Part shown: piece by piece, positions 15 to 42,933 of the stretch
Layout: every line of letters starts with the position of its first letter
Numbering within the stretch: the stretch's first letter is position 1
DNA from: a virus
Lineage: Duplodnaviria; Caudoviricetes
IMG/VR virus record: IMGVR_UViG_3300029317_000031
Location: 1 to 43,964 of that record
Strand: one strand, 5' to 3'
Length of the DNA: 43,964 bases
Translations under genes and position numbers: made by a program
The notes under the pieces: model-generated
The model's database searches: none
Told to the model about the DNA's origin: nothing
The model's input: only the letters and a program-made list of their open reading frames with translations

Positions 15-314
15 ATGACAGTGCAGTACCACTTAAGGTCTCTTGCGCAAGATGACTTAGAATCTATCTGGCTTTACACCGTCGAACATTGGGGTGTTGA
101 ACAAGCAGATACTTATCTCGAAGCACTCATTAAGCGTTTTGAATGGCTGGCTGAAAATGCCACGATGGGTAAACCACGGGATGATGTGAAGAAAGGGTAT
201 TATTGCTTTCCAGAAGGAGGGCACCTTATTTTCTATACTCTAAAAGACAAGCAAGTTGATATTATTGGCATAGCCCATCAGCGGATGGATATTGTTGAAT
301 ATTTGGGGCAATAA
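15..314 (+). CDS. ParE/RelE-family type II toxin
   Basis: 99 aa with ParE-like pattern (A..DL..IW.YT...WG..QA..Y, GH.IFY, I.H.RMD); the antitoxin would lie upstream of the window. Confidence 0.85.
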   Translation: MTVQYHLRSLAQDDLESIWLYTVEHWGVEQADTYLEALIKRFEWLAENATMGKPRDDVKKGYYCFPEGGHLIFYTLKDKQVDIIGIAHQRMDIVEYLGQ

Positions 315-446
315 CCCCTACGAAAAATTAAGAATGATATTTAACGAAATAACATCATTCATCTAAAGACTAAAATTCTAGGTGGCATTTATTCAGACCT
401 TAGTCTGGCAAGGACGCTTAGTGATACATTAAGGAAGTAAAGCGGT

Positions 447-2405
447 ATGAGTACACAATCAGTTTCAGCATTAATCTGGTCTACAGCAGACCTTCTACGC
501 GGCGATTACAAACAATCAGACTACGGTAAAATCATCTTGCCCTTCACCATGATTCGTCGTTTGGAATGCGTTTTAGAAGCCACGCGGGATGATGTGTTAC
601 AAGAGCATGAAGCCAGAAAAAGTCTTGATATACCCTTGCAGCAGTTCTTAACCCGTAAGTCGGGGCATAGCTTTTACAATACCTCTAAGTTCACCCTGGC
701 CAAGCTGATGTCTGATCCAAATAACATCAGAGAAAATCTTGATAGTTACATCAATGACTTTAGTGAAAACGCCCGTGAGATTTTTGAAAAGTACGAGTTC
801 ACCAATCAGATAGAAAAGCTGAATGAGAATGACCTGCTTTATCTCATCGTAGAAAAATTCGCCAGCTTTGACTTACACCCCGAAACCATCTCAAATCACC
901 AAATGGGTTTGCTATTTGAAGAGCTTATCCGCAAATTCGCAGAAGCTTCAAACGAAACGGCAGGGGAACATTTCACCCCAAGAGACATTGTTCGTTTAAC
1001 CACATCATTACTGTTTTCAACCGATGATGACGTGCTAACCAAGTCAGGTGTGGTTCGTAGCTTGTATGACCCTACCGCAGGCACAGGCGGCTTTTTAACC
1101 AGTGGTACAGAGTATCTACACGAATTAAACGCTGAGGCGACCCTCGTCACCTTTGGGCAAGAACTAAACCCCGAATCTTATGCTATCTGTAAAGCCGATA
1201 TGATGATTAAAGGTCAATCAGTCGATAACATTAAGTACGGCAACACCTTAAGCAATGACCAGCTAAGCAATAACAAATTTGATTACATGCTCTCTAATCC
1301 GCCGTTTGGTGTGGAATGGAAGAAAGTACAACAAACCGTAACAGACGAACATAAAGAACGTGGTTTTGATGGGCGCTTTGGTATGGGCTTACCCAGAGTG
1401 TCGGATGGATCGCTGCTTTTCTTAATGCACCTGATATCCAAAATGCGCCCGCAAGCAGAAGGCGGCAGCCGTATCGGTATTATTCTTAATGGTTCACCTT
1501 TATTCACAGGGGGCGCAGGCAGTGGCGAAAGCGAAATAAGGCGCTATGTGCTAGAAAATGATTTGGTAGAAGCCATCATCGCCATGCCGAACGACATGTT
1601 CTTTAACACCGGCATCGCCACCTATATTTGGGTGCTGAGCAACAATAAAGCAGCCGAACGAGCAGCAAAGGTACAGCTTATTAATGCCAGCAGCCTGGGG
1701 GAGTCCATGCGTAAATCGCTAGGTTCAAAACGTAAATACCTAACAGAAGAACAAATTAACAGCATCGTCCGCAGCTACGGTGAATTTGAACAAAGCAAAA
1801 CATCAAAACTGTTTGATACCACCGATTTTGGCTACAGACGCATCACCGTAGAGCGACCATTACAACTCAGCTTTTACCCGCACGATGCAGACAAGCTAGA
1901 AGCCTTTCAAAACGACAAAGCATTCACTAAGTGGAAAGCGCTAGGCTCAGAAGTGTTAACGGCATTAAAAGCCTTAGAGGCCGATAAAATACCCAGCCGT
2001 GATGATTTCAAGCAGATGTTAGCAACACAGATGGCATCAAAGCTCACCGCATCACAATTTAAACTGATTCAAAAACACCTAGCAGAACACGATGACGATG
2101 CAGCCTTGTGCAAAGATGCCAAAGGCAAATTAGAAGCCAATGCAGAATTACGTGATTATGAAAACATACCGCTAGCGCAAGACATAGCAGCATACTTTGC
2201 CAAAGAAGTGACACCGCATGTTCCCCTAGCGTGGATAGATAAAAAGAAAACAGACGCTAAAGATGGTGAAATAGGCATTGTGGGTTATGAAATACCGTTT
2301 AACCGCCATTTTTATGAATACGTACCCCCCAGACCGCTAGAAGTAATAGATGCAGAACTAGAAACCCTGAATAAGGAAATTATGGAGATGCTGCGTGAAA
2401 TATAA
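447..2405 (+). CDS. hsdM: Type I RM methyltransferase subunit
   Basis: [16 protein letters not shown] (motif I), NPPF (motif IV). Confidence 0.97.
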
Positions 2406-3741
2406 AGCTGAGCCAAACAGCTCTACCGTTGGTGCGCCTAGTGCCCGTAGGGTGAAACTTATGCCCCGTGGGTATAAGCAATACCCTAATTACAAGGATA
2501 GTGGTGTTGAGTGGTTGGAGGAGATTCCTGAGGGTTGGGAAGTAGCAACTATATCAAGATTATTTGATATCAAAGCAGGAGGAGATTTAAAAAAGGAGTT
2601 TTTTTCAGAAACGTTAACGGATAAATGTTGTTATCCAATATATACAAATATTACTAAAACAAAATTACCTTACGGCTATACAAGTAAAGCAATTTTTAAC
2701 AAAAATACAATAACGGTAACAGGGCGTGGAGATGTAGGTTATGCGGTTTATAGAGAATCTGAATATGATGCAATAATACGATTGTTAGTTCTTTCACCAA
2801 AAAACTCAGAACCATGTAAGTACTTTATGTATTACATCAATGAGGTTCTTGAGTTCCAAGTTGCGAAAACTGCAATTAGTCAACTTTCGACAGAACAAAT
2901 ATCACCATATAGATTAACTGTACCACCCCTCCAAGAACAAAAATCCATAGCCAACTACCTAGACAAAGCCATCGCTAAAATCGACACCCTAATCGAAAAA
3001 CAAACCAAACTCATTGAGTTGCTCAAAGAAAAGCGCCAAGCGGTTATCTCATCAGCCGTCACGCGTGGTCTTGATGCTTCTGTTCCCATGAAAGATAGCG
3101 GTGTTGAATGGTTGGGGGAGATTCCTGAGCATTGGGTTGCAAGTAGATTGAAGCATCTTACAAAGCAAATTATAGATGGCGCGCATTTCACACCAACATA
3201 TGTTGATAATGGAGTGCCTTTTTTAAGAGTTACTGATTTACATAATGAGGTTATTGATTTAAGTAAAGTTAAATTTATTCCACTAAGTGAACACAAAGAA
3301 TTAATAAAAAGATGTAACCCTCAAAAAGGAGATTTACTACTATCCAAAAATGGAACGATAGGACTTACAAAGATTGTAACTTGGGATTGGGAGTTTAGTG
3401 TTTTCGTCAGCTTATGTTTAATTAAGTTTTTACAAGATAAAATGTTACCTGAGTTCTTTATGTTTATTTTTCAAAGCAGCGGAATTGAAGAGCAACTCTC
3501 TCATAGTAGTAAGAAAACATCGGTTACAAATTTACATTTAGATAAGATTAATGCGCTCTATTTTTCTGTACCACCTGTAAAAGAACAACGAGAAATAGTT
3601 TCAAATCTAAAAAAATCATCTTTAAAATTTGAAAGTCTAATCACCAAATCAACTCAAGCCATATCCCTATTAAAAGAAAAACGCACCGCCCTAATCAGCG
3701 CCTGTGTCACAGGCAAAATTGACGTAAGGGATGCCGCATGA
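2395..3741 (+). CDS. hsdS: Type I RM specificity subunit
   Basis: Two conserved [13 protein letters not shown] blocks and PP..EQ motifs flanking two AT-rich TRDs; ends in GKIDV. Confidence 0.95.
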
Positions 3742-4763
3742 AACCGTCTGTCAACAAGGCTTTATTAGCTAATATTAAAGCCCTGTTAGCGGAGGCGCGG
3801 CAAAACTTACAGCAGTCTATCAACACCACTATGGTGCAGAGCTATTGGCATGTTGGGCGCTTGATTGTAGAGGATGAGCAACAGGGCAAGGCACGGGCGG
3901 CGTATGGTAAACAACAACTGGCGCAGCTGGCTGAAGTGCTCAGTGATGAGTTTGGCAAGGGATTTGATGCGAGAAACTTGCGAAATATGCGGCAGTTTTA
4001 CCAAACTTTTCCAATTTGGAACGCGGTGCGTACCGAATTGAGCTGGACGCATTACCGACGTTTAATCAGAATAGAAAACCAACAGGCAAGGGAATGGTAT
4101 ATCAGCGAAAGCATCGCCAATCATTGGAGTGCTAGAGCCTTAGATAGGCAGGTTAGTAAGCTTTATTATGAGCGCTTGCTTTCCAGTAAAGAAAAAGCGC
4201 CCTTGCAGCAAGAGGCGGCAGAAAAATCCCTCGCGCTTCAGGTCGATACCAAGGATGTTTTAAGAGACCCTTATATTTTTGATTTCTTAAACCTACCCGG
4301 CCAAACCTTGTTTGAATCGGATATAGAGCAATCGCTGATTGATAATCTTCAGCAATTTCTATTAGAACTGGGCAGGGGCTTTGCTTTTGTTTCCAGACAG
4401 CAACGGCTGCAGGTAGAGGAGCAAGACTTTTATATCGACTTGGTGTTTTATAATTTCAAGCTCAAATGCTTTCTGCTGATTGATTTAAAACTGGGTAAGC
4501 TGAGCCATCAAGACGTGGGGCAGATGGACACCTATGTGCGTGTTTATGATGCGTTTCATAAGGGTGAAGATGATAACCCGACCATTGGGCTTATCCTTTG
4601 TAGTGAGAAGTCTGAAGCGGTGGCAAAATACAGTGTTTTAAGTGATTCTAAACAGCTGTTTAGCTCAAAGTATCTGCCCTTTTTACCCACAGAAGATGAG
4701 TTGCGATTAGAGCTTCTTAGAGAAAGACGGTTAATTTTAGAGAATAGTGGAGAGGGTGAATGA
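3738..4763 (+). CDS. YhcG/DUF1016-family PD-(D/E)XK nuclease domain protein
   Basis: LSWTHY, RDPY.FDFL, FLLELG.GFAF, IDLVFY, IDLK, GQM..Y, PTIGLILC motifs. Confidence 0.92.
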   Translation: MKPSVNKALLANIKALLAEARQNLQQSINTTMVQSYWHVGRLIVEDEQQGKARAAYGKQQLAQLAEVLSDEFGKGFDARNLRNMRQFYQTFPIWNAVRTELSWTHYRRLIRIENQQAREWYISESIANHWSARALDRQVSKLYYERLLSSKEKAPLQQEAAEKSLALQVDTKDVLRDPYIFDFLNLPGQTLFESDIEQSLIDNLQQFLLELGRGFAFVSRQQRLQVEEQDFYIDLVFYNFKLKCFLLIDLKLGKLSHQDVGQMDTYVRVYDAFHKGEDDNPTIGLILCSEKSEAVAKYSVLSDSKQLFSSKYLPFLPTEDELRLELLRERRLILENSGEGE

Positions 4764-7700
4764 GTACCTTAGATAAACATAAGGAAAATGTATTTGAGTC
4801 TGAAATTGTTTCGTACTTAACATCAGCTCAATGGCTTGAAGGCACATCGCAAGGTTATGAGAAAGAGCTGGCGTTATACCCCGAAGATTTAATCAGCTAC
4901 GTTAAAGCCACATCCCCACAAGCTTACGAGAAAATGCAAAAGCGTGAAGGCGCTAAAACCGATGAGGTACTGTGTAAGCATGTGGCTAAAGAGATGGACA
5001 AACACGGTTCACTGCATTTTTTAAGAAAAGAAGTGAAGTACATTGGTAGCAAATTCAAACTTTGCCAATTTAAACCCGAACTGCATAACCCTGATACCCA
5101 AGCCAAGTACGATGCCAATATTTTAAGAGTGGTTCGGCAGGTTTATTATTCCACCCAGAACAAAAAAAGCATTGATATTGTGCTGTTCTTAAATGGCTTG
5201 CCTATTGCCACTTTAGAGATTAAAACGGATTTCACCCAGAACGTACAAGACGCGATTAAACAGTACAAGCACGACAGACCACCCAAAGGCGAGCCGTTAC
5301 TCTCATTCAATACGCGGGCCTTGGTTCATTTTGCGGTGAGTAATGATGAAGTGTATATGACCACCAAGTTAGCCGGTGCTAATACCTTCTTTTTGCCGTT
5401 TAATAAAGGTAAAGCGGATGGTAGTGCGGGTAATCCACCGAACCCTAATGGCTATGCCACGGCATACCTTTGGGAAGATGTGTTGCAAAAGGATTCGTTG
5501 CTTAATATTCTGGCAAGGTATATTCACCTTGAAACGAAAGAGGTTGAAGACCATCAAGGCAGGAAGAGTAAAAAAGAAACGCTGATTTTTCCACGCTATC
5601 ATCAGTTAGATGTGGTTCGCAGTTTATTGCTGGACACTAAGGCCAAAGGTGCGGGTCATCATTACCTTATTCAACACAGTGCGGGTAGCGGCAAAAGTAA
5701 TTCAATTGCCTGGTTGTCGCATCAGTTATCTTCTTTGCACAGTGATGCAGAAGAGGCTATTTTTAACTCGGTTATTGTCATCACCGATAGAACGGTATTA
5801 GACAATCAATTACAGGAAACTATCTCTAGCTTCGAGCATAAAGATGGTGTGGTGGTGGGCATTAGCCGCGAGGGCAGTAATGAATCTAAATCCTCTCAAT
5901 TAGCCGATGCATTAGAGCGTGGTGCAAAGATCATCATCACCACTATTCAGACCTTCCCGTTTGTATTAGAAGCCATACAAAAACGTACCACGTTAAAGAA
6001 CAACAGCTATGCCATTATTGCGGATGAGGCGCATTCATCACAAACAGGCTCCAGTGCTAAAAAATTACGCGATGTGCTAACAGCAGAGCAAATAGAAGAA
6101 GGGGTTGAGGTCAGCGCAGAAGATATTATTACCGCTGCCATTGAGTCGCGTAGTGCTAGCAGTAGTTTGAGTTTTTATGCGTTTACCGCAACACCTAAAA
6201 CAAAAACCTTAGAAATGTTTGGTGTGTTACCAGACCCAACACAAGCGCCCTCAAAAGATAATAAGCCTGAAGCATTCCATTTATACACCATGAAACAAGC
6301 CATAGAAGAAGGCTTTATTTTAGATGTATTGCACGGTTATACGACCTATAAGCTGTACTACAAGCTTGCACACAGTGATGTAAGCAGGGATGAAGAAGTT
6401 GAAAGCAAGCGCGCCAAGGTAAAAGTTGCTAAGTGGTTAAATATTCACCCGCATAATATTTCACAGAAAATAGAGATTATTTGCGGGCATTTTAGAACCC
6501 ATGTGGCGCATCTTTTAGAGGGCCAAGCAAAAGCAATGGTGGTGACATCTAGCAGACAGGCGGCGGTTCGTTATAAGTTAAAGTTTGATGCGTACATTAA
6601 AGAGCATGGCATAGAGGAACAAATGCAAGCAATGGTGGCGTTTTCCGGCAAGATTGAAGATGACATTGAGGGCGCTAAAAAAGAATATACCGAAGCGAAT
6701 ATGAACCCTAATTTGAACGGCAGGGAAATGCGTAAGGCTTTTGATAGCAATGACTATCAAGTGATGTTGGTGGCGAATAAGTTTCAAACGGGGTTCGACC
6801 AACCTAAGCTATGCGCCATGTATGTTGATAAAAAGCTAGGCGGTGTGGATTGCGTGCAAACCTTATCAAGGTTGAACCGTACTTATTCAGGCAAAAACCA
6901 AACCTTCATTATAGATTTCTTTAATGACACGGCAGATATTAAGGAAGCATTTGAGCCTTACTACAACACCACAGAAATTGAGGACGTAACCGACCCTAAT
7001 ATTGTTTATGAGATGCAAACCAAGCTTGAGTCGAATTCCATATTTACCCAAACAGAGATAGAAAGCTACGCCAACGCATTCTTTAGACCGAAAGGCATGC
7101 AAAAGGCGATGAGCAGCGCCTTAAAGCCAGCGCTTGACCGTTATAAAGGGCGTTACAAGAGAGCGTTGGAGCGAATCAAGAATGTTAAAGAGCAGCTGAA
7201 ATATGCTAAAGAAGCGAATAACGATAAAGAGATTCATAACTTAACGCTAGCGCTGAAAGAAGCCAATGAAGATAAAAACTCATTAGATATATTCAAGAAA
7301 GACATGATTACCTTTGTGCGCATGTATGAATTTTTATCCCAAATTGTTGACTACGCGGATGAGGAACTGTTGAAACTTGCCGCGTTTATTAAAGGGCTGA
7401 TCCCTAATTTGAAAACTTCTGATGAGAAAGACCCGATTGATATTTCATTGATTGAGTTAAGCCATTACAAGCTTAATAAACAACAAACAGAGAATATTTA
7501 TTTAGTAGGTGAGGATGCGCCATTATATGGCAGTGGTAGCGGCGGTGGAGCGACACCTAAAGACCCTGAGAAAGAATTGCTTTCCGCTATTGTGGGTGAG
7601 ATGAACTTATTGTCTGATGGTGAGCTGAGTGATGGTGATGTGTTGAACTACTTCCGAACCATTACCGACAAGGTTAGGGAAAACAAGAAGGCTGTGCTGC

Positions 7701-7903
7701 GAGTAGCGAACAACACCAAAGAGCAAGCGATGATGGGTGGGCTTGCTGATGCGGTTGATGGTGCTGTTACGGATAGCTTTGATGCACATCAAAAGCTAGC
7801 TATGAAAGTGTTGAGTGACGACAGAATTAAGAAAATCTTGGCGGATTATGTTTATGGGGAAATTGCTAAGGGTTTGAAGGCTGAAGCAAATAATTATATA
7901 TAA
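4760..7903 (+). CDS. hsdR: Type I RM restriction subunit
   Basis: DIVLFLNGLPIATLEIK nuclease motif, HSAGSGKS Walker A, DEAH box, FTATP, QTGFDQP. Confidence 0.96.
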   Translation: MSTLDKHKENVFESEIVSYLTSAQWLEGTSQGYEKELALYPEDLISYVKATSPQAYEKMQKREGAKTDEVLCKHVAKEMDKHGSLHFLRKEVKYIGSKFKLCQFKPELHNPDTQAKYDANILRVVRQVYYSTQNKKSIDIVLFLNGLPIATLEIKTDFTQNVQDAIKQYKHDRPPKGEPLLSFNTRALVHFAVSNDEVYMTTKLAGANTFFLPFNKGKADGSAGNPPNPNGYATAYLWEDVLQKDSLLNILARYIHLETKEVEDHQGRKSKKETLIFPRYHQLDVVRSLLLDTKAKGAGHHYLIQHSAGSGKSNSIAWLSHQLSSLHSDAEEAIFNSVIVITDRTVLDNQLQETISSFEHKDGVVVGISREGSNESKSSQLADALERGAKIIITTIQTFPFVLEAIQKRTTLKNNSYAIIADEAHSSQTGSSAKKLRDVLTAEQIEEGVEVSAEDIITAAIESRSASSSLSFYAFTATPKTKTLEMFGVLPDPTQAPSKDNKPEAFHLYTMKQAIEEGFILDVLHGYTTYKLYYKLAHSDVSRDEEVESKRAKVKVAKWLNIHPHNISQKIEIICGHFRTHVAHLLEGQAKAMVVTSSRQAAVRYKLKFDAYIKEHGIEEQMQAMVAFSGKIEDDIEGAKKEYTEANMNPNLNGREMRKAFDSNDYQVMLVANKFQTGFDQPKLCAMYVDKKLGGVDCVQTLSRLNRTYSGKNQTFIIDFFNDTADIKEAFEPYYNTTEIEDVTDPNIVYEMQTKLESNSIFTQTEIESYANAFFRPKGMQKAMSSALKPALDRYKGRYKRALERIKNVKEQLKYAKEANNDKEIHNLTLALKEANEDKNSLDIFKKDMITFVRMYEFLSQIVDYADEELLKLAAFIKGLIPNLKTSDEKDPIDISLIELSHYKLNKQQTENIYLVGEDAPLYGSGSGGGATPKDPEKELLSAIVGEMNLLSDGELSDGDVLNYFRTITDKVRENKKAVLRVANNTKEQAMMGGLADAVDGAVTDSFDAHQKLAMKVLSDDRIKKILADYVYGEIAKGLKAEANNYI

Positions 7904-8344: not shown

Positions 8345-9328
8345 TTACTCTAGTGGGCCATATTTGATGGCATCGGCCAGGTGATCGGGGGCTAGGTGGG
8401 CATATTTCAGGGTTGTGTGTATATCGGCGTGGCCTAATATCTTTTGCAGGGTCAGAATGTTTCCCCCCTGGATAACAAAGTGGCTGGCGAATGAGTGCCG
8501 GAGGATGTGCGAGTTCTGGCCGCTGGGCAGTTGAATGCCGGTTCTTATAACGGCACGCCGGAATGCCCCAATGCAGTTAGTAAACACTCGCTCTGAGGGG
8601 TTTTTTTTATCAATAAACGCCAGCAGCATCTTATTGAACGAATCACTGAGCGGAACGGTACGTATTTTCTTGGATTTGGTTTTCACAAACGTAATCTTCC
8701 CATCGTGAATTTGCTGAAACGTCAGATTTTCCGCTTCCCCCCACCTAGCCCCAGTGCGCACGCATATTTGCGCGACAAACCACGTGGATTTATTCATGCA
8801 GCGCTCATCGATATCCGCCATTAGGGTATTAATCTGCTGTTTCGATAAATACGTTAACTGGCGCTCTTGAATCTTAACGAACTCAACTCCCGCAATCGGG
8901 TTGCTGTAACTAATCACCTTAAGCTTTATCAGCTTATTAAACATTGCAGACAGGTAACCGTGGTGGTTATTGAATGTTTTAGCCGTTAGCCCCGCATTAA
9001 TGCGTGAATAACGGTATTCCACCAACTGCTCAGCGCTTAGCGTGCAGGCTTGTGGGTTACCCAAGTCATTGGCCATGGCCTGCAAAATATCTCGCGTGCG
9101 AACATTGTCAGATAAATTGATTCCGTGGTACTTGTACCAAAGATTAATTAACTCACGTAGCGTGCGTGGATCGGTCACCGCATCTTGGGTGGCTTTCATC
9201 ATCGCCAGCGTTTCACGGTTGAAGATATTCGCCACATCCTCATCCGTGAACAATCGGCGAACCCGCTTAAAGCCTTTTTTTTGAATCAAGCACAGCCATT
9301 TACCGCCTTTCTGTTGTTTAACAGTCAC
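8345..9328 (-). CDS. int: Phage tyrosine integrase (P2/HP1 type)
   Basis: TGARWGE, TKSKK, HILRHSFASHF, LGH and Y catalytic residues; next to att. Confidence 0.96.
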   Translation of the reverse strand: MTVKQQKGGKWLCLIQKKGFKRVRRLFTDEDVANIFNRETLAMMKATQDAVTDPRTLRELINLWYKYHGINLSDNVRTRDILQAMANDLGNPQACTLSAEQLVEYRYSRINAGLTAKTFNNHHGYLSAMFNKLIKLKVISYSNPIAGVEFVKIQERQLTYLSKQQINTLMADIDERCMNKSTWFVAQICVRTGARWGEAENLTFQQIHDGKITFVKTKSKKIRTVPLSDSFNKMLLAFIDKKNPSERVFTNCIGAFRRAVIRTGIQLPSGQNSHILRHSFASHFVIQGGNILTLQKILGHADIHTTLKYAHLAPDHLADAIKYGPLE

Positions 9329-11354: not shown

Positions 11355-11603
11355 GTGATGGGTGGGGAGCAAGAAATAAAAACAAATAACGAAAAATTGC
11401 GTGAAGCAAAAATTGATATGGATAAAGCTGTTCTTTATGTAATGAGTGAAGCCATAAACTCGAACATTGAACAAATAGATAACCCACTGACAAAGCAAGT
11501 GCTGTCGAGTATTCTTGTTATATTTTGCAGAGAAGCGGCGTCACTTGGCTTTGATTCTGGCTTAGAGTTTGCAGAAAAACACGGTTTTAAGTTGGGGGAA
11601 TAA
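11355..11603 (+). CDS. Hypothetical early protein
   Basis: 82 aa ORF with AAGGAG RBS; stop overlaps primase start. Confidence 0.6.
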   Translation: MMGGEQEIKTNNEKLREAKIDMDKAVLYVMSEAINSNIEQIDNPLTKQVLSSILVIFCREAASLGFDSGLEFAEKHGFKLGE

Positions 11604-14329
11604 TGCAACATATCAACCTAAACCCGCAAATAATTAACCGCCTAGAAAGTGACTTTAACATGGTGATTCGAGGCGCCCATTTACGCGGCGGCGAATGCCC
11701 TGAATGCAGCAAAAAAACCCTCTGGACCTGGCTAGACAAGCCCGGCCGTGTGCAGTGTGATCGCACCAATAACTGCAGCTTTAGCGCCACCAGCAAAGAA
11801 CTCTTCCCCGATTTATTCGAGCGAATTAACGAACGCTACAAACCCACCGAAGAAAACCCCAACGCCACCGCTGATGCGTATTTATCGCTTATTCGCGGGA
11901 TTGATCCCAGCGCTATACAGGGCTGGTACGATCAAAACAAATACTGGCACCCCAACGGCAACAAGGGCACCGCCTCGGTGCGGTTTTATTTAACAGAAGA
12001 TAAACAAACCTACTGGGAACGGTTGATAGATACCGTCACCATCACCGATGACGATGGCAGCACCGAAGAGCGCAACAAAAGTTTTAAAGGGGCTTTTAAG
12101 GGCCTTTGGTGGCAGCCGCCGCAGCTAACCATTAATAAAGATGACACGGTTTATTTTTGCGAAGGCATTTTAGACGCTATATCGCTTAATTTAAACGGCC
12201 TAAAAGCGGTGGCGATTATGTCGAGCGGGACCTTTCCGCATGAAACCATAAAGCAGCATTTAGGCCAAAATATTCAATGGGTACTGGCGCTGGATAACGA
12301 CAAAGCCGGCCGCAAAAGCATCAAAAAACACGGCCAAACCCTGCGCGATATGGGCGAGCGCGTTACCGCCATGTTATCGAGTGAAAGTGATGAAAAAGCC
12401 GATTGGAATGATTTACACCGCGCCAAAAAACTCAGCGAACTGGACATTGCCCAATACCGCTATTTAGGTGGCTTAGAACTGGCCATTAGCTACCGCGAAA
12501 AAGCGCAAATGATTTGGCAGCACAAGAACTGCCGGCAATATGTTTACGACTACAGAAACAAAACATATTCATTAAAGATTGATAAAAAGAAACATGATGA
12601 AGCCGTAAAAACCTTTGTTTATGGGCAGTCTGGCGCAGTTGACGGCTCATTGAATACCGGTGATGTGGAAAAAATAATAGCCGAATTAAGCGAGATGCAA
12701 AAGAAAGAATTAGATGCAAGCGCGTTTGGCCAGTCTGCAACAATTCAAGAAATCGCCACCTTTAAAATGGATTACCTGTATTTTCAGCAACCCGACAACG
12801 GTGAGGATGGGCAGTATTTCTTCCACTTTACGCTGGCAACGAATGATCAGGCTCGTGAAATAGCTTTTACCCACAAAACAATGAATGCCGCGAGTGATTT
12901 TTCAAAATCATCCATGCGCATACCCGGTGCGTGTTTTGATGGTTCAACCGCTAATTTACGGTGGTTATATAAAGACTGGACAAGACGAAACCAAAAAGAG
13001 GTGCGCACCCTCGATTATATTGGTTACGACAAAAAAACCCGCGCTTATATCTATAACGATTTTGCCATCGAAAAAGGGCGTATTCATAAGGTGAATAGTC
13101 AATCGTTTTTTCAGCTCAAAAAAGAGGGGATCAAAACAACAGTCGACATTAGGCAAACCCTCAGCACTAAGCAAAATATCGCGTGGTTAGATGATTATAA
13201 AACCGCGTTCAAAACTAAAGGGCTGATTGCGCTGGCTTGGTGGTTTGGTAGCTTATTTGCCGAACAAATACGTGAACAACACCGCGCTTACCCCTATTTT
13301 GAACTGGTTGGAACGCCGGATTCCGGCAAATCTTTACTGGTGGATTTTTTGTGGAAACTGCTCGGCAAAGAAGGGGAAACATTCAACCCGAAAGTATCGA
13401 CCCCAGCGGGCCGAATTCGAAAAATGAGTGAAGTGTCAAACATACCGATTGTTTTTAACGAAACAGATAACGAAGCGCAAGATGGCGCACGGCATGAAAA
13501 GAAATTTGCATGGGATGAATTAAAGGATCTTTTTGAAGGCCACTTTGGGAAAGTCACCGGCGTTAAATCGATGGATAACAGAACTCGAAAAACCCTTTTT
13601 AAGGGCGCATTAATGATGCTGCAAAACGTGAAAATTGTGGCATCAGAGGCGATGATGACCCGAATGGTTCACATGTTTTTTGATACCAGCCATCATTCGC
13701 CTGCGGGCTATGACGCCTCCGTTCGATTGAACTCAATGGATGTTAAAGAACTCAACGGCTTTTTAATTAATACCGTCAAACAAGAAGAGAGAATTTTAAA
13801 ACACTTTAACCAGCAATACCCCAAACACCGCGCCACCTTGATTGAGAATAAAGAAATAAAAACAAATCGAATTATAGAAAATCACGCCAAAATCATGGCC
13901 TTATTCGACTGTTTAAAAGGCGTTATACCCGCAATAAGCGATCAAGACGTGGTCGATGTTCGCATCATGCTTGAAGAGCTGGCGGTAGAGTGCCAGCAGG
14001 AACTGAACGAAGACAGCCAGCTCGTTCAGCAGTTTTGGGGCCAATACTATTATATGAATGGCGAACCAGAAATGGGCTACCAGCGGCAAGTTGGTGAGCA
14101 AAAGCCGCGCTTAAATCACAGCCGCACACCGGATCAAACAATCTGCGTTAGTCTTGAGCACTTTCACCGAATGTGTGGTGAGTTAAACCAGCCAAGAATG
14201 GATCCGAACGAACTTAGGCGACAGCTAAAAGACAGTAAAAAACACAAGCTTATCGACAGTAAGGTGATTAATTCCGCTATTGAACCACGCTCGGTCCGAT
14301 GTTTTGTGTTTGAAGTGAAAGGGGTTTAA
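11603..14329 (+). CDS. P4-alpha-like primase-helicase replication protein
   Basis: N-terminal Cys zinc finger (CPEC...C...C), TOPRIM (CEGILDA, LDND), Walker A GTPDSGKS. Confidence 0.88.
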   Translation: MQHINLNPQIINRLESDFNMVIRGAHLRGGECPECSKKTLWTWLDKPGRVQCDRTNNCSFSATSKELFPDLFERINERYKPTEENPNATADAYLSLIRGIDPSAIQGWYDQNKYWHPNGNKGTASVRFYLTEDKQTYWERLIDTVTITDDDGSTEERNKSFKGAFKGLWWQPPQLTINKDDTVYFCEGILDAISLNLNGLKAVAIMSSGTFPHETIKQHLGQNIQWVLALDNDKAGRKSIKKHGQTLRDMGERVTAMLSSESDEKADWNDLHRAKKLSELDIAQYRYLGGLELAISYREKAQMIWQHKNCRQYVYDYRNKTYSLKIDKKKHDEAVKTFVYGQSGAVDGSLNTGDVEKIIAELSEMQKKELDASAFGQSATIQEIATFKMDYLYFQQPDNGEDGQYFFHFTLATNDQAREIAFTHKTMNAASDFSKSSMRIPGACFDGSTANLRWLYKDWTRRNQKEVRTLDYIGYDKKTRAYIYNDFAIEKGRIHKVNSQSFFQLKKEGIKTTVDIRQTLSTKQNIAWLDDYKTAFKTKGLIALAWWFGSLFAEQIREQHRAYPYFELVGTPDSGKSLLVDFLWKLLGKEGETFNPKVSTPAGRIRKMSEVSNIPIVFNETDNEAQDGARHEKKFAWDELKDLFEGHFGKVTGVKSMDNRTRKTLFKGALMMLQNVKIVASEAMMTRMVHMFFDTSHHSPAGYDASVRLNSMDVKELNGFLINTVKQEERILKHFNQQYPKHRATLIENKEIKTNRIIENHAKIMALFDCLKGVIPAISDQDVVDVRIMLEELAVECQQELNEDSQLVQQFWGQYYYMNGEPEMGYQRQVGEQKPRLNHSRTPDQTICVSLEHFHRMCGELNQPRMDPNELRRQLKDSKKHKLIDSKVINSAIEPRSVRCFVFEVKGV

Positions 14330-14499: not shown

Positions 14500-14723
14500 A
14501 CTGGAAAAGAACCGACAAATACTGCCAAAGCAGTGGGCCTTACACCGTATTCGCCTTCGGCAAAGGCATGAATCAAGGCAAAGCCGTGTGGCGATTCGCC
14601 GCCAGCTATAAACCCCAGCAAGCCGTATTAGGCGTATTTGAAACAAGTGACGCCGCACGGCAGTGTTGCCAACAGCATCAGCTAGACATGAAAAAACCGC
14701 CAGCAGCGGTCTTTTCGCCTTAA
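14496..14723 (+). CDS. Hypothetical phage protein
   Basis: 75 aa, coupled within the early operon. Confidence 0.6.
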   Translation: MNWKRTDKYCQSSGPYTVFAFGKGMNQGKAVWRFAASYKPQQAVLGVFETSDAARQCCQQHQLDMKKPPAAVFSP

Positions 14724-14920
14724 ATGAAAATACTCATAAAAGGGGAGTCGTGGCGGTATTTTAACAGCCCATCCGCCCCCTGCAACAACAAACCGTAGCA
14801 ACAAAGAACAGCCCCAGCGGTCGGTGGGCAACAACAACCGCAATCAAAGCGCGTACTCCTTTCGCGTGATTTGGTCGAATCGCCACCGTAAGTGGCCATA
14901 TTTAAACCACAGAGATCAAC

Positions 14921-15106
14921 ATGCAAAAAATTGTATTAAAACCCGGTGATCAACTCACCATCAGTGGCGTCCAAATGACCGTTTTAGAGGTCGTCAAACA
15001 AAACATTCACCTCGGGTACACCGGCATCAACAATAAACACATCGCCTATAACCCGCTGCGGGTGGCTGAATTTACCCCGGTCGGGGCAACAACGGAGAAC
15101 CACTAA
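14921..15106 (+). CDS. Divergent CsrA-like protein
   Basis: LKPGDQLTI..VQMTVLEV....IHLG resembles the CsrA beta-strand pattern. Confidence 0.45.
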   Translation: MQKIVLKPGDQLTISGVQMTVLEVVKQNIHLGYTGINNKHIAYNPLRVAEFTPVGATTENH

Positions 15107-15498
15107 TGGAAACTGAATTTTATTTGCAAGATAAACGCCAATACGTCGGCAATGATATTTTGTGGTGGGCCAAAGATGGCAAAGGTTACACAACCGATGT
15201 TAGTGAAGCAGAGGTATTTACTAAAGAAAGAGCTTTGAAGCAGAACGCGTGCAGGCCAGATATAGATATTCCTTGGCTTAAAAGTTACGTTGATAGTAAC
15301 ACTCGACCGGTGATTGATATGCAGATAGCTTGCTCGTCTGAATCTTTGAAAGGGACAGGAATAGTCTTATCCAAAGTCCCTAAACCAAAACGAGAAGTTC
15401 ACAACTGTGGGCATTGCGGTAAGTTCTGCGACGAACATGATTGGTATTCGAGGGTTTATAACGGTGACCCATGTAGCCGATGCGAAGATGATTTATAA
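15106..15498 (+). CDS. Hypothetical phage protein with C-terminal CxxC...CxxC
   Basis: 130 aa; stop codon lies in the core box of the attC at 15493. Confidence 0.75.
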   Translation: METEFYLQDKRQYVGNDILWWAKDGKGYTTDVSEAEVFTKERALKQNACRPDIDIPWLKSYVDSNTRPVIDMQIACSSESLKGTGIVLSKVPKPKREVHNCGHCGKFCDEHDWYSRVYNGDPCSRCEDDL

Positions 15499-15553
15499 CG
15501 CCCATAGATAAGCAGCGCGACTTTTTGCGTCCGACTTGATTTGCTTGTTATAT
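15493..15553 (-). repeat. Integron attC site 1
   Basis: Minus strand: R'' ATATAAC, 5 nt, L'' AATCAAGT ... L' GCTTATC, 7 nt, R' GTTATAA; 61 bp. Confidence 0.85.
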
Positions 15554-15587
15554 GCCGTACTTATTTTGATTTATTTACATTTCGCCC

Positions 15588-15618
15588 TTGACCGTTACCG
15601 GTAACGATGTAATAATAT
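15588..15618 (+). promoter_or_regulatory. Cassette-internal sigma70-like promoter with palindromic operator
   Basis: TTGACC, 17 nt, AATAAT; perfect palindrome CGTTACCGGTAACG at 15593-15606. Confidence 0.6.
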
Positions 15619-15645
15619 ACCCACATTAACGAAACGGGAAAGAAA

Positions 15646-15846
15646 ATGACAACATTAACAATAAAGCAAGCAATAGCAAAAGAAACAATAGTAATAATGG
15701 CTGGAATTGTAGAAAAAGAAACCGGTAATCCTTGCGACATGACTGAGCTTGTAAAGCAAATCAAGATTACCGGAACAGCAACAAGCAAGCGCTTCGAGAA
15801 GTTAGCAGAAGCCGCGTACAACATGCTAATGACAGAGGCTGCATAA
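15646..15846 (+). CDS. Cassette-borne hypothetical protein
   Basis: 66 aa between attC 1 and attC 2. Confidence 0.7.
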   Translation: MTTLTIKQAIAKETIVIMAGIVEKETGNPCDMTELVKQIKITGTATSKRFEKLAEAAYNMLMTEAA

Positions 15847-15989
15847 TGGCATTAACCAACAAACAACGCCAAGAAGCCCTCCGAAAAAGGCGGGCGGGAC
15901 TTGGACAAAAGCGCCGAGAGTTTTACTTGAATGATGAAGAAAAATTGAAGGTTGACGAATATATTAGAAAATTGCGAAAGGCAATATAA
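15846..15989 (+). CDS. Small basic putative DNA-binding protein (47 aa, not in the ORF track)
   Basis: MALTNKQRQEALRKRRAGLGQKRREFYLNDEEKLKVDEYIRKLRKAI; TAATG overlap with upstream ORF; stop in attC 2 core. Confidence 0.7.
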   Translation: MALTNKQRQEALRKRRAGLGQKRREFYLNDEEKLKVDEYIRKLRKAI

Positions 15990-16043
15990 CGCTCAACAAT
16001 AAGCGGCGGCGCTTTTACCGTCCGCTTGATTAGCTTGTTAGCT
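15984..16043 (-). repeat. Integron attC site 2
   Basis: Minus strand: R'' AGCTAAC, 5 nt, L'' AATCAAGC ... L' GCTTATT, 7 nt, R' GTTATAT; 60 bp. Confidence 0.9.
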
Positions 16044-16056
16044 GAGAATTGGAGAA

Positions 16057-16269
16057 ATGAACATGAATATTAATATTAATGAAGGTTTAATGTGGTTTGG
16101 TTTTTGGATTTTTATGTCGGTCTTCGTGGCCGTCGATCACTGGATTTACTCAAAAGGGTATGACTCGTTTTTCTTGGTCCACAAGACAGACATTGAAAAA
16201 GAGCTGCAACAACTGAAAGTTGAGGAACTTAAATTGAAGATAAAACTGCACAGAATAGAAGGCAGCTAA
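16057..16269 (+). CDS. Cassette-borne small membrane protein with coiled-coil tail
   Basis: GGAGA RBS; hydrophobic N-terminal segment; stop in attC 3 core. Confidence 0.7.
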   Translation: MNMNININEGLMWFGFWIFMSVFVAVDHWIYSKGYDSFFLVHKTDIEKELQQLKVEELKLKIKLHRIEGS

Positions 16270-16324
16270 CGCCATAGTTAAAGCGCGGCGCTTTATGCCG
16301 TCGATTTTAAACGCCTTGTTAGGC
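16264..16324 (-). repeat. Integron attC site 3
   Basis: Minus strand: R'' GCCTAAC, 5 nt, L'' GTTTAAAA ... L' CTTTAAC, 6 nt, R' GTTAGCT; 61 bp. Confidence 0.88.
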
Positions 16325-16344
16325 GCATAGCGGAGTAAGGAATT

Positions 16345-16629
16345 ATGAATAAAGTAAAGCGACATATCGAAGGGTTTGATCGAGAGCTGATAGAAGGCCC
16401 TCGGAAACAGGAAAGTGACGTTCAAAATTTTTCAGGTTTTGGTGATATTTGCAACAACTGCGAGAACCAAAAAGAGACGGAAATTAGTGATGGAGTTATT
16501 GCCACTAGATGTAAATTGGCTGGAACATGGAAGAATTTTAAGGGTGATTTATACGGTGAAAAGAGAGTGGTTATGACGGATTTAGTTAGGTTTACTGACG
16601 GAAGTGAATATTGCTCAGGTTACGCCTAA
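16345..16629 (+). CDS. Cassette-borne hypothetical protein with four Cys
   Basis: AAGGA RBS; 94 aa; stop in the GCCTAAC core. Confidence 0.7.
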   Translation: MNKVKRHIEGFDRELIEGPRKQESDVQNFSGFGDICNNCENQKETEISDGVIATRCKLAGTWKNFKGDLYGEKRVVMTDLVRFTDGSEYCSGYA

Positions 16630-16677
16630 CAGCGTATTCAACGTCAAGCTGACGCATTATTCAACGTCAAGCTGACG
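16624..16677 (-). repeat. attI-like site: core GTTAGGC preceded by two 20-bp direct repeats
   Basis: TATTCAACGTCAAGCTGACG at 16635-16654 and 16658-16677. Confidence 0.55.
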
Positions 16678-16708: not shown

Positions 16709-17071
16709 ATGGCAAGCAAAGGCATTAACAAAGTGATCATCGTCGGCAACTTAGGCCAAGACCCTGAAATGCGCCAATTACCCAGTGGCGGGGCGGTGGC
16801 GAATATTACCGTGGCCACCTCGGAAGCCTGGAAGGATAAAACCACCGGTGAGCAAAAAGAGCAAACCGAGTGGCATCGGGTGGTGTTCTTTAATCGCTTA
16901 GCGGACATTGTCGGCGAATATTTGAAAAAGGGCGCGAAGGTTTATATAGAAGGATCACTGCAAACCCGTAAATGGCAAGACCAAAGCGGGCAGGATCGTT
17001 ATACCACCGAGATTAAAGCCAGCACCATGCAAATGCTCGATAGCCGTCCAAACGATGAGCCACCGCGCTAA
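16709..17071 (+). CDS. ssb: Single-stranded DNA-binding protein (no long acidic tail)
   Basis: [20 protein letters not shown]...TEWHRVVFF...[11 protein letters not shown]. Confidence 0.96.
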
Positions 17072-40196: not shown

Positions 40197-40423
40197 GTGA
40201 GCCGTTAGCTGATATACGTTGTGGGGCGTGCAGTAAAAAGCTGGGCGCGGGCATTTTTATTAAGCTGGAGCTTAAGTGCCCACGCTGTAAAACAATTAAT
40301 TTTTTGAGGGTCGAGAACCCCGAACCTGTACACCGCGAGTGTCGAACGATGGACGACACGCGTGACAAAATACCAACAAAAAAACCTAAGCCTTCACCAC
40401 ACCGATTGCCTGAGCCTGCTTAA
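40193..40423 (+). CDS. Com-family zinc-finger regulator
   Basis: IRCGAC.KKL...LELKCPRCKTIN. Confidence 0.85.
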   Translation: MSEPLADIRCGACSKKLGAGIFIKLELKCPRCKTINFLRVENPEPVHRECRTMDDTRDKIPTKKPKPSPHRLPEPA

Positions 40424-41303
40424 AACCTTTAGCGATAATAGTATTGATTTAATTGCCACCGACCCGCCTTATTTTAAGGTGAAGGGCGAGGCCTGGGATA
40501 ACCAGTGGAAAAACAAAACGGCCTTTTTTGCTTGGCTGGATGAAGTGCTGGCTGAATTTGCACGGGTGTTAAAGCCGGCCGGTTCGCTTTATTTGTTTGC
40601 GGGGCCGCATTTAGCCACCGAGGTGGAGGGCGTTATTGCCCGGCATTTTAAGGTGCTTAATCAAATTTTGTGGCGTAAGGAGAAGGGCCGGCACTTGGGC
40701 TGCAATAAAGAATCGCTGCGCCAATTCTTCCCGCAAACTGAGCATATTATTTTTGCCGAAAGCCGTAAAAAACCGCCGTTTATGTTTGAGCCTATTTTGG
40801 CTTATTTGGAGGGTGCAAGGCTGGCCGCCGGTGTTAGCCGTGCCCAGATCGATGCGGCCTGCGGTAAGCAAATGAGCGGCCATTGGTTTGGCCGTTCGCA
40901 ATTTAGTATTCCCAGCGAGCAACATTATTTAACAATGGATGCGCTGTTTGGCGGGGTGTTAAAACCTTATTCGGTGTTTAAAAAAGACTTTGTTAGCTTG
41001 CGCGATGCCGGCAAAAACCACCGCCGCACCTTTAATGTCAGCAAAGAGGTACCGTTTACTAATGTGTGGGATTTTGCCACGGTGGCGTGGTACCAGGGAA
41101 AACACCCCTGCGAAAAACCACTCGATTTAATGGCGCATATTATTAACACCAGTTCCTTACCGGGTGATGTGGTGTTTGATGGTTTTGTGGGCAGTGGTTC
41201 CACCGCGCTGGCCTGCCAACAAACGGGCCGACGCTTTATTGGTTGCGAAATGGGCGAGGCCGAATTTGCGTTGGCGGTGGGGCGCTTAGCCGAGGTTGCT
41301 TAG
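40362..41303 (+). CDS. N6/N4 DNA methyltransferase (beta class)
   Basis: DPPY before HPCEKP and D.F.GSGST. Confidence 0.92.
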   Translation: MTKYQQKNLSLHHTDCLSLLKTFSDNSIDLIATDPPYFKVKGEAWDNQWKNKTAFFAWLDEVLAEFARVLKPAGSLYLFAGPHLATEVEGVIARHFKVLNQILWRKEKGRHLGCNKESLRQFFPQTEHIIFAESRKKPPFMFEPILAYLEGARLAAGVSRAQIDAACGKQMSGHWFGRSQFSIPSEQHYLTMDALFGGVLKPYSVFKKDFVSLRDAGKNHRRTFNVSKEVPFTNVWDFATVAWYQGKHPCEKPLDLMAHIINTSSLPGDVVFDGFVGSGSTALACQQTGRRFIGCEMGEAEFALAVGRLAEVA

Positions 41304-41307
41304 CGCT

Positions 41308-41775
41308 TTATTGGATTTCTATATCGGCTAACAGCCATCGCTCGGCTTCGCTTGAGTAGTTAAGCAGGACCTTGGTGTTAGAACGAATCGTGCCGCCAAA
41401 GCTGTTTTGCGAGTCAACGTATGAGCTGACTAAAAACTGGCAATCGGCTACTTTGCTGAGTGTGCCGCCGCCGATGGGGAAGTCGGCGCTGGCCGGTGAT
41501 TTTAAGTGTTTTTTAATATAGGTTTGGGCATAGCCTTTAGCGGATGAGCCGCTGCTGCATTCACGTTCGGCGGTAGCGGCTTTGTTGGCGGCAATCTCTT
41601 CGGGGCTGCTGCCACACGCATTCACCAGGACCACCACCAGTAGCACTAAAAAAACAACGCTGAAAAGCCCCTGTTTGCTGCTGATGGTGGGGTTTGTTTG
41701 ACCACAATGCGGGCACTTACGAACACCCTGAGCGACTTCTTTTTTACACGTTTTACACGCGACCAACTTAGCCAT
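41308..41775 (-). CDS. Zinc-ribbon membrane protein (moron-like)
   Basis: CxxC...CPHCG, one TM segment, LKSPASADF...VDSQNSFG domain. Confidence 0.7.
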   Translation of the reverse strand: MAKLVACKTCKKEVAQGVRKCPHCGQTNPTISSKQGLFSVVFLVLLVVVLVNACGSSPEEIAANKAATAERECSSGSSAKGYAQTYIKKHLKSPASADFPIGGGTLSKVADCQFLVSSYVDSQNSFGGTIRSNTKVLLNYSSEAERWLLADIEIQ

Positions 41776-41831
41776 AAATTCCCTTTAATACTGCGTAATT
41801 AAATAATCGAATACATTGTATACGTTTTTTA

Positions 41832-41860
41832 TTGACAGCATAAATGCAATTGATTAACCT
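41832..41860 (+). promoter_or_regulatory. Sigma70 promoter of the C4/antirepressor operon
   Basis: TTGACA, 17 nt, TAACCT. Confidence 0.65.
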
Positions 41861-41958
41861 AGCGATACGTTAGCAAAATCTAACGGCGGGTCTGGAAACC
41901 TGTAAAATGACTATTGCGCACAAGCGCATGATAATGCGTTTTTTATTGCCAAAATTTT

Positions 41959-42045
41959 ATGGTGGCGGTACGTGGGGAGCTTCGGCTCGCCGGTTTCATT
42001 AGCAATAGTCCTTCCGGTTTTCCAGCCTGCGTACTGCCATCACCC
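41959..42045 (+). ncRNA. C4/CI-type antisense RNA
   Basis: Closing stem ATGGTGGCGGTACG / CGTACTGCCATCA, GAGC-TTCG-GCTC hairpin, loops complementary to flanking target sites. Confidence 0.75.
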
Positions 42046-42094
42046 TTATCTGGAAATAAGGATGGTGGTTCTTTAACTCAAAAGGACTATTAAC

Positions 42095-42430
42095 ATGCTA
42101 AACCCAATCGACACCTCAAAATATACCCAAGCCGCCTTACGCAAATTGGCCCATCTACCGCCTAAACGTCTTTTTTTGGGCGCCGGCAGGATAGCCGCGA
42201 TTAACCTACCCAGCGACACCCCTTTTATTGTCGAAATGGAAAGCGGTGCACTATTCAAATTAGGCGGACTTAACAAAGGCCAAGCCAGCCAGCTACCCAG
42301 CTTGCATCAACAACTCATCGGTCAGCGGATTGCTTTCAAGTTTCAAGGCGGCTTTAACGACTTAAATCAGCCCATCAACCCCATTTTTAATACATTGCTG
42401 TTAGCGGCTAATACCGGGGGCGTTCAGTGA
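42095..42430 (+). CDS. Hypothetical protein downstream of C4 RNA
   Basis: AAGGA RBS; 111 aa. Confidence 0.55.
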   Translation: MLNPIDTSKYTQAALRKLAHLPPKRLFLGAGRIAAINLPSDTPFIVEMESGALFKLGGLNKGQASQLPSLHQQLIGQRIAFKFQGGFNDLNQPINPIFNTLLLAANTGGVQ

Positions 42431-42933
42431 TCTCGCTTAGAGCACTTGCCAACCCCTTTATGTTCAACAATTTTCAGGTGCGAACAGCGGTCGATAATGA
42501 CGATATCGTGTGGTTTTGCGGGCTGGATCTTTGCGCCGCCTTAGATATTGATAATACGCACAACGATAATACGCCCACCGAATGGAGTCGAATGAGCTTG
42601 CCGTGTAGTAGCGACGAACTGTCGCTGAAGTTTTTTAACGAAGCAGGCGCATATCGGTTAATATTTTCATCCAACAGGCCCAACGCCATTTCCTTGGCTG
42701 ATTGGGTGTGCCGCGAGGTAGTACCAGTATTTCGCAATAATGGTTTCTTTGGAAAGATTAGCGCTAAGGACCGGGTGATTTACCTAGAAATTGTCGCAGA
42801 TCTAACCAATAAACTAAACACCACTAATAATGCAATGTTGCATAAAATGCTTCAGGCCGAGCTACGCGACTGTTGCAATGTCATCGGACGCAAAATGCCG
42901 GACCTGACGTTACTGGGTAACGAGTACCCGTGA
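42427..42933 (+). CDS. Bro-N domain protein (putative antirepressor)
   Basis: F.F....VRT, WFCG.DLC.AL, NEAG.YRLIF.S..P.A...DWV..EV.P. Confidence 0.85.
   Translation: MISLRALANPFMFNNFQVRTAVDNDDIVWFCGLDLCAALDIDNTHNDNTPTEWSRMSLPCSSDELSLKFFNEAGAYRLIFSSNRPNAISLADWVCREVVPVFRNNGFFGKISAKDRVIYLEIVADLTNKLNTTNNAMLHKMLQAELRDCCNVIGRKMPDLTLLGNEYP

Follow-up and report, generated by a model that had tools for sequence, protein, structure and literature searches.

The early operon of a temperate phage genome holds three attC-type sites and four small genes whose polarity is opposite to that of bacterial gene cassettes. We consider it likely, with a probability of roughly 0.7, that this is an inverted, phage-adapted array whose units are gained and lost at the attC cores, most probably through a host integron integrase (IntI) acting in trans. 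The array is real and active; it is a CALIN by definition and, because of its gene polarity, not a canonical cassette array.

Genomic context of the array

We refer to the whole stretch of DNA that was analysed (43,964 bp) as the window. PHROGs and Pfam annotation identifies the record as a temperate phage genome of the P2/phiCTX type, with an integrase, a repressor-like gene, a Toprim primase, a single-strand DNA-binding protein gene (ssb), ogr, and portal, terminase, capsid and contractile tail genes; the closest named relatives found in a portal search were in marine gammaproteobacteria. The array forms the end of a rightward early operon, with a 130-aa phage gene on one side and ssb on the other, and its GC content is 40% compared with 46.5% for the whole window. 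The features to which we refer below are as follows (positions in the window):

8345..9328, minus strand: prophage integrase of the arm-type phage class, not an integron integrase
11603..14329, plus strand: phiCTX-type Toprim primase, upstream of the array in the same early operon, 28-35% to phiCTX-like phages
15106..15498, plus strand: 130-aa phage gene (phrog_2457), left flank of the array, stop inside the R' core of site A
15493..15553, minus strand: attC-type site A (61 bp), predicted crossover between 15498 and 15499, model score 45.8 bits
15499..15989, minus strand: cassette 3 (491 bp), i.e., site A, its own promoter and two small plus-strand genes, perfect core pair
15588..15616, plus strand: sigma-70-like promoter (10/12, extended -10) with a palindrome in its spacer (15593-15606)
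15646..15846, plus strand: 66-aa ORF of cassette 3, no family
15846..15989, plus strand: 47-aa ORF that weakly matches a family of small phage transcription regulators (phrog_536, E 0.0065), stops at the crossover
15984..16043, minus strand: attC-type site B (60 bp), predicted crossover between 15989 and 15990, model score 58.8 bits
15990..16269, minus strand: cassette 2 (280 bp), i.e., site B and one plus-strand gene, perfect core pair
16057..16269, plus strand: 70-aa ORF, no family, N-terminal half hydrophobic, C-terminus charged, homologous genes present in other phage-like contigs
16264..16324, minus strand: attC-type site C (61 bp), predicted crossover between 16269 and 16270, model score 48.6 bits
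16270..16629, minus strand: cassette 1 (360 bp), i.e., site C and one plus-strand gene
16345..16629, plus strand: 94-aa ORF, only itself found as homologue, language-model neighbours are unnamed viral proteins
16624..16677, minus strand: distal attI-like entry site, core at 16624-16630 and a degenerate second box 5 bp away at 16636-16642
16635-16654 and 16658-16677: two perfect 20-bp direct repeats of the entry site, found nowhere else in the window
16709..17071, plus strand: ssb, starting 79 bp past the entry core

No intI was found in the record, where the only tyrosine recombinase scored 49 bits against TIGR02249 (cut-off 265); the whole-record search with the IntI profile gave no intI remnant either, and PHROGs and Pfam scans of the main ORFs revealed no further recombinase. 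The claim of the original prediction that a phage integrase is the sole recombinase here, with no IntI, is thus borne out.

Left of the integrase (15-7903) the window carries a ParE-family gene and a type I restriction-modification operon with an inserted YhcG gene, which are either prophage cargo or host flank, and its right end (40362-42933) encodes a DNA methyltransferase, a zinc-ribbon protein and a Bro-N antirepressor. A non-coding stretch between early genes (14690-14900) contains inverted and short direct repeats; an Rfam search of the window gave nothing relevant, with one chance-level match in that stretch (isrK, E 0.82).

Three attC-type sites bound units with matched cores

Read on the minus strand, sites A-C each consist of R'', a 5-nt spacer, an 8-nt L'', a 7-nt L' and R', with the extra base of L'' at position 4; all three hence have the attC box order R''-L''-L'-R' with an extrahelical base in L''. 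The R'-side spacer of attC sites ranges from 5 to 6 nt. The spacers measured here are 7, 7 and 6 nt; of the 207 viral sites among the matches listed, 13 have a 7-nt spacer, and not one of these was called canonical. Orientation was anchored on the bottom strand of attCaadA7 as printed in Table S3 of Qi et al. 2023 (PMC9892861) and on Nivina 2016 (PMC5027507).

A covariance model trained on 46 sites from other viral loci matched only sites A-C in the 44-kb window, all on the minus strand (E 1.7e-8 to 1.7e-11). The training sites were gathered with a pattern drawn from sites A and B, making the result partly circular for those two; site C does not fit the collecting pattern and is therefore the sole independent test of the model (48.6 bits). 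A structural scanner recovered two of the three sites, compared with a mean of 0.6 matches in 60 shuffles of the window, and none of the 60 shuffles contained three same-strand sites inside 1 kb. A first, loose version of the scanner was unspecific (16 matches), while its stricter successor overlooks site A and a number of sites recognised by eye, so that the counts from it are lower bounds. The folding energy of the sites is weak (z 0.4 to -2.1) and does not separate the two strands.

The core pairs are perfect in all three units, as in an excised circle. Both the three minus-strand palindromes with attC anatomy and the three perfect core pairs bounding units of 491, 280 and 360 bp had been described in the original prediction: the box layout and model matches of 45.8-58.8 bits back the former, every value agreed on remeasurement for the latter, and the covariance search proposed there as a check matched three sites on the minus strand only. 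With three sites inside 830 bp, all on the minus strand (according to our own model, which is partly circular for two of them), and no integron integrase nearby in the whole record, the locus has the makeup of a CALIN; it differs from a SALIN or attG insertion, which has a single site, and from a complete integron, which has intI beside attI.

Cargo genes are inverted relative to bacterial cassettes

All four cargo genes lie on the plus strand, i.e., on the attC bottom strand and opposite to bacterial cassettes, and the TAA stop of each unit's last gene adjoins the predicted crossover. The arrangement of a canonical cassette (a gene on the top strand that ends at its own attC and is expressible from Pc) was not found. 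The original prediction of a cassette array was hence right about the attC sites and cores and incomplete in having missed both the inversion of the genes and the distal entry site. Pfam, PHROGs and the Atlas gave the cargo genes no usable name; they are likely to encode small early accessory proteins. The promoter of cassette 3 is weak evidence alone, with three promoter-like matches in the search against 3.9 expected by chance; the same element also heads a core-matched unit of the relative L139 (75% over 56 nt). By eye, the promoter with its palindrome also occurs in L346/L347, before a homologue of the cassette-2 gene without attC.

To place this polarity in a wider setting, we searched viral contigs with one pattern, which gave at least 128 stretches (52 of 64 parts of the data scanned). 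Among the matches listed, 207 of 234 scanner sites at viral loci had enough flank, and 135 of these were inverted, 20 canonical and 52 ties. A ribosome site and start codon followed the site on the bottom strand in 114 viral cases and on the top strand in 10 (again among the matches listed). The 113 viral sites outside the pattern were likewise mostly inverted (71, with 10 canonical and 32 ties, among the matches listed), as were the viral loci when counted as such (72 inverted, 11 canonical and 11 ties among the matches listed, overlapping loci being counted twice). In two further viral loci (L004:2626-3081 and L007:1396-1848) ssb genes adjoin inverted attC sites, as in the window, and a third (L077:1015-1257, 2551-2748 and 2777-3094) holds one array with duplicated units, in which three genes have the same N-terminus, supplied by attC.

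Applied to 401 gammaproteobacterial genomes, the same pattern had matches in 39. In a bacterial control of 28 of the 30 fetched loci (two unpublished genomes were left out), 43 of 51 sites were scored as 1 inverted, 29 canonical and 13 ties. Sites beside the chromosomal intI in L290, L291, L292 and L294 were canonical, and no sites were shown next to the chromosomal intI in L289. As for published examples, PH101 gave four model matches, including both IntI1-validated sites, which are inverted with respect to the annotated genes, and the published TJE1 array is canonical; P12002L_attC1, the one site that failed the IntI1 assay of Qi et al. 2023 (PMC9892861), is inverted. Given the inversion, ordinary bacterial cassettes that are expressed after capture do not fit the window.

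A distal entry site is reused in natural variants

The head of the attC top strand, 16624-16677, lies where an attI would be placed, has a core, a degenerate second box and direct repeats, and is the insertion point in natural variants. The distal sites of relatives are unlike one another. To obtain variants, contigs from public sequencing runs were aligned to the region at 88% likeness. Run X1, possibly the source of the window, was left out of the variant counts; X2 belongs to another study, X3 and X5 come from one sample, X4 has figures identical to X3 and was probably filed twice, and the RNA runs X4 and X7 are represented by contigs only.

A joint from 16265 to 16626 was found in X2, X3/X5 and X4. 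It leaves out 360 bases and brings cassette 2 directly to the distal site; its position has 5 letters of play, a range that includes the predicted unit 16270-16629. The variant pieces are unitigs at depth 3-12, those with the joints at depth 3-6, and the short side at a joint measures 29-34 letters; the X2 piece over cassette 2 shows no differing letters. Another gene runs up to 16627 in X3 and yet another up to about 16620-16627 in X2, both as loose ends, and one X2 unitig stops at 16627; among the variants at least three different genes end at the distal core. At the other end of the array, an X2 contig retains the left flank gene and, beyond 15503, continues into a different attC body. Other runs left cassette 1 and the 66-aa gene uncovered, which was not counted as evidence. 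Cassette 1 is likely to be the latest insertion, and in the simplest history it would have entered the distal site of an array resembling the variants. The capture and shuffling of cassettes that had been proposed for this locus thus gain support from breakpoints at the predicted cores in natural variants; a host IntI as the agent is what we infer.

attC bodies travel with genes and are also exchanged

Across the viral and relative loci, the cores of neighbouring sites were perfectly paired in 111 of 141 cases among the matches listed, compared with 10.9 after shuffling, and such perfect pairs imply a circular intermediate. We also asked which neighbouring gene an attC body accompanies (219 viral sites, among the matches listed). 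Pairs of sites that have in common only the gene following the site on the bottom strand had a median body identity of 0.80 (17 pairs), those with only the preceding gene in common 0.28 (3 pairs), against a background of 0.39; the pairs form about five groups, so they are not independent, and the collecting pattern favours similar bodies. This linkage is the one expected from bottom-strand recombination at R', and it is not absolute. Specifically, cassette 2 carries other attC bodies in X2, X3 and L333, and the body of site A precedes another gene in X2, the exchange of bodies taking place close to the R''/L'' end, in a stretch of about 15 bases that is similar between sites. Because bottom-strand recombination by IntI alone fails to explain these swaps, a second route is needed, either top-strand events or homologous exchange. 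In one X2 contig, the stretch corresponding to window 16044-16067 (the end of attC, the ribosome site and the initial codons of cassette 2) is fused to another gene, and this fusion looks like an intermediate in the making of a new cassette.

The cassette-2 gene has homologues in 23 other loci. A scanner site adjoins the homologue in four of these (L337, L338, L341 and L350), always in the inverted orientation; flanking sites were recognised by eye in L333, half-site remnants occur in L334 and L335, and the rest have none. The L333 contig (1.4 kb) is 89.5% identical to cassette 2 from 16034 to 16271 only, and the neighbour of the homologue is a canonical sense cassette with a DUF4062 gene, which is split over two frames (the adjoining cassettes involve L333:1130-1447 and 116-179). 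This contig is probably part of a bacterial integron, and the juxtaposition would then be a sign that phage and bacterial cassette pools meet.

Arrays and integron integrases in related prophages and hosts

The portal gene, used as a query, found viral relatives, which the primase and the 130-aa flank gene did not; a blastn comparison of the array with cultured phages and plasmids yielded nothing of use. The primase-ogr interval is arranged as in the window in 46 of the 160 portal loci. Scanner sites with the top strand on the minus strand were present in L139 (1), L178 (5), L216 (4) and L232 (1), and one with the top strand on the plus strand in L225. On inspection by eye, L178, L139 and L216 hold inverted arrays of unrelated small genes with matched cores in the same interval, each ending in a core followed by non-attC sequence, as in the window; these are the clear arrays, 3 in 46 loci. 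The comparison of related prophages suggested for the primase-ssb interval accordingly found arrays that differ in content. The last unit of L139 (3936-4634, reversed) has a perfectly matched non-standard core and a gene that starts inside attC. Inverted arrays also lie near the portal in L211 and L220. In L129, L131 and L132, which are the closest relatives, the interval lacks attC sites, so arrays are patchy among relatives; two of them, L131 and L132, hold homologues of the 130-aa flank gene without attC.

We then searched host genomes for IntI. Matches over the cut-off were found in G001, G002 and G003, the hosts of L216, L211 and L220, and none in G004, whose prophage L232 has degenerate sites; hence three of the four genomes whose prophages carry such sites encode IntI. 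G005, the host of L209, has IntI, and no array was found there. Since G004 lacks IntI and G005 has it without an array, IntI presence does not discriminate. Chromosomal attC sites in G001 are 130-140 bp long, compared with 71-85 bp for the prophage sites, and a pattern for longer sites had no match in the five host genomes.

Among 50 virus records (chosen from the pattern loci, plus L139 and L178), two had IntI over the cut-off, and L139 and L178 were not among them. One of the two, L024, is a class 1 integron. The other, G446, is a temperate phage with an IntI of 457 bits in addition to a serine integrase and a repressor; its intI is located some 60 bp beyond the distal core of an inverted array and is co-directional with the cargo, in the place where the window has ssb. 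The cargo of this array (G446:C1:2422-6463, L356) includes a phosphoadenosine phosphosulfate reductase-like gene, and two of its attC sites are near-identical.

Alternative explanations

The position of intI in G446 could mean that the platform of the window once had its own distal IntI, since lost, and that units now move only with a co-infecting or co-resident IntI-bearing phage. We think this unlikely, as virus-borne IntI is confined to 2 of 50 records (one being the class 1 integron), the window holds no intI remnant, the relatives L139 and L178 have no IntI, and three of four host genomes with prophage sites encode a chromosomal one. It is quite unlikely that unit movement is chiefly due to homologous or slippage recombination, by phage or host recombination functions, between attC bodies that resemble one another, with IntI playing a minor part now and the hairpins serving as linkers, ribosome-site modules or RNA signals. 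Such a process would agree with the body swaps at the roughly 15 similar bases near R''/L'', with the genes that start inside the attC loop in L178, L139 and L211, and with the integrase-independent loss of small cassettes between similar sites (Loot 2017, PMC5371416). However, the distal site and the incoming units share only 5-7 bases, yet at least three genes end exactly there; the perfect core pairs (111 of 141 among the matches listed) imply a circular intermediate; and neighbouring sites in L178 are too dissimilar for homologous exchange.

The array could also be a passive CALIN, i.e., ordinary bacterial cassettes inserted off-target (attG-type) or a fragment of a chromosomal integron. 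IntI does insert cassettes at short secondary sites (Loot preprint, 10.1101/2022.09.11.507474), some phages contain host integron fragments (Qi et al. 2023, PMC9892861), and the distribution of arrays is patchy (3 clear arrays in 46 loci). Orientation largely refutes this explanation, which we judge very improbable: genes lie on the top strand at 29 of 30 called bacterial sites and in host integrons, and those of the window do not. Moreover, cargo homologues are phage-type, and the chromosomal attC sites of G001 (130-140 bp) are unlike the prophage sites (71-85 bp). That another recombinase, either the prophage integrase or an Xer-type enzyme, uses the sites is extremely improbable, given that they are members of one sequence family with attCaadA7 and bacterial integron sites and that the only recombinase found in the window is an arm-type phage integrase.

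A model for phage cassette turnover

Under the reading that we prefer, namely an inverted array served by the host, IntI acting in trans would excise and insert units on a platform that is mirrored relative to an integron. The enzyme would recombine the folded bottom strand at the AAC beside each stop codon, and a unit would consist of attC as 5' leader, a ribosome site, a gene and a stop at the crossover; in L178, L139, L211 and G446 some genes start inside attC. Circles would enter preferentially at the distal attI-like site, which would place the newest gene farthest from the early promoter, yet in a position to be read in sense from it. A second, slower route would exchange attC bodies near the R''/L'' end, and low-rate top-strand events are documented at aadA7-type sites (Nivina 2016, PMC5027507).

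Through inversion, the recombinogenic strand would likely coincide with the sense strand; if replication follows early transcription, the latter would serve as the lagging-strand template, and recombination is higher with the bottom strand on that template (Loot 2017, PMC5371416). GC skew in the window tracks gene direction and gives no replication direction. Inversion would also silence phage cassettes in host integrons and host cassettes, which are often anti-phage, in the phage operon. Such mutual silencing matters because chromosomal integrons store anti-phage genes, as a preprint by Kieffer reportedly also found. Storage of this kind is described in the Darracq preprint (10.1101/2024.07.02.601686). 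A broader and more tentative proposal, which we hold to be possible and rather doubtful, is a mirror-image integron economy run on the host integrase, which would shuffle early genes fast while staying deaf to host anti-phage cassettes, and in which attC-plus-ribosome-site leaders fused to new genes would give birth to cassettes that leak into bacterial arrays.

Relation to known systems and significance

Phage CALINs are already published. Qi et al. 2023 (PMC9892861) reported 17 among 10,705 phage genomes and found that IntI1 recombined 5 of 6 tested phage sites. These resemble the window in having an attC cluster without intI in a phage, and PH101_attC2 belongs to the same short family of sites; the accessible portions of that paper's text mention neither a rule of gene inversion nor an entry site or turnover in nature, whereas turnover at cores is seen in natural variants of the window. 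The original prediction that such arrays are rarely reported in phages is consistent with these counts as far as published genomes go; similar sites are nonetheless common in uncultured viral contigs. The literature that we searched, most of it freely readable, contained no report that phage arrays are systematically inverted or turn over in nature; the accessible parts of four further papers (PMC13676570, PMC13323075, PMC13366799 and 10.1101/2025.06.18.660453) had no bearing on the array.

Bacterial integron arrays (PMC5027507, PMC5371416) share with the window the attC anatomy, matched cores, crossover at a conserved triplet and an entry site at the head of the top strand. By contrast, the window has no intI and no Pc side, its genes are antisense to the top strand and attC forms a 5' leader; expression is expected from a phage early promoter at the far end, and the newest cassette would come last rather than first. 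SALINs and attG insertions (10.1101/2022.09.11.507474) are likewise cassettes outside integrons that depend on an integrase encoded elsewhere, whereas the window has three stacked units, one entry site reused by different genes and inverted cargo of phage type. The integron of G446 is alike in its temperate phage setting, early operon, inverted units, matched cores and distal entry with repeated AAC motifs, and differs in encoding IntI at the distal end.

Integrons are regarded as bacterial systems in which anti-phage genes are stored. Should phages maintain a parallel, inverted pool of cassettes and borrow IntI, a site-specific mechanism would lie behind part of the mosaicism of their early regions, and genes would be exchanged in both directions between phage arrays and bacterial integrons. 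The idea would also give a handle on how cassettes are made, a process called largely unknown by Loot 2017 (PMC5371416). The locus makes it testable, with its short sites, a defined entry site and a natural before-and-after pair that differs by one 360-bp unit.
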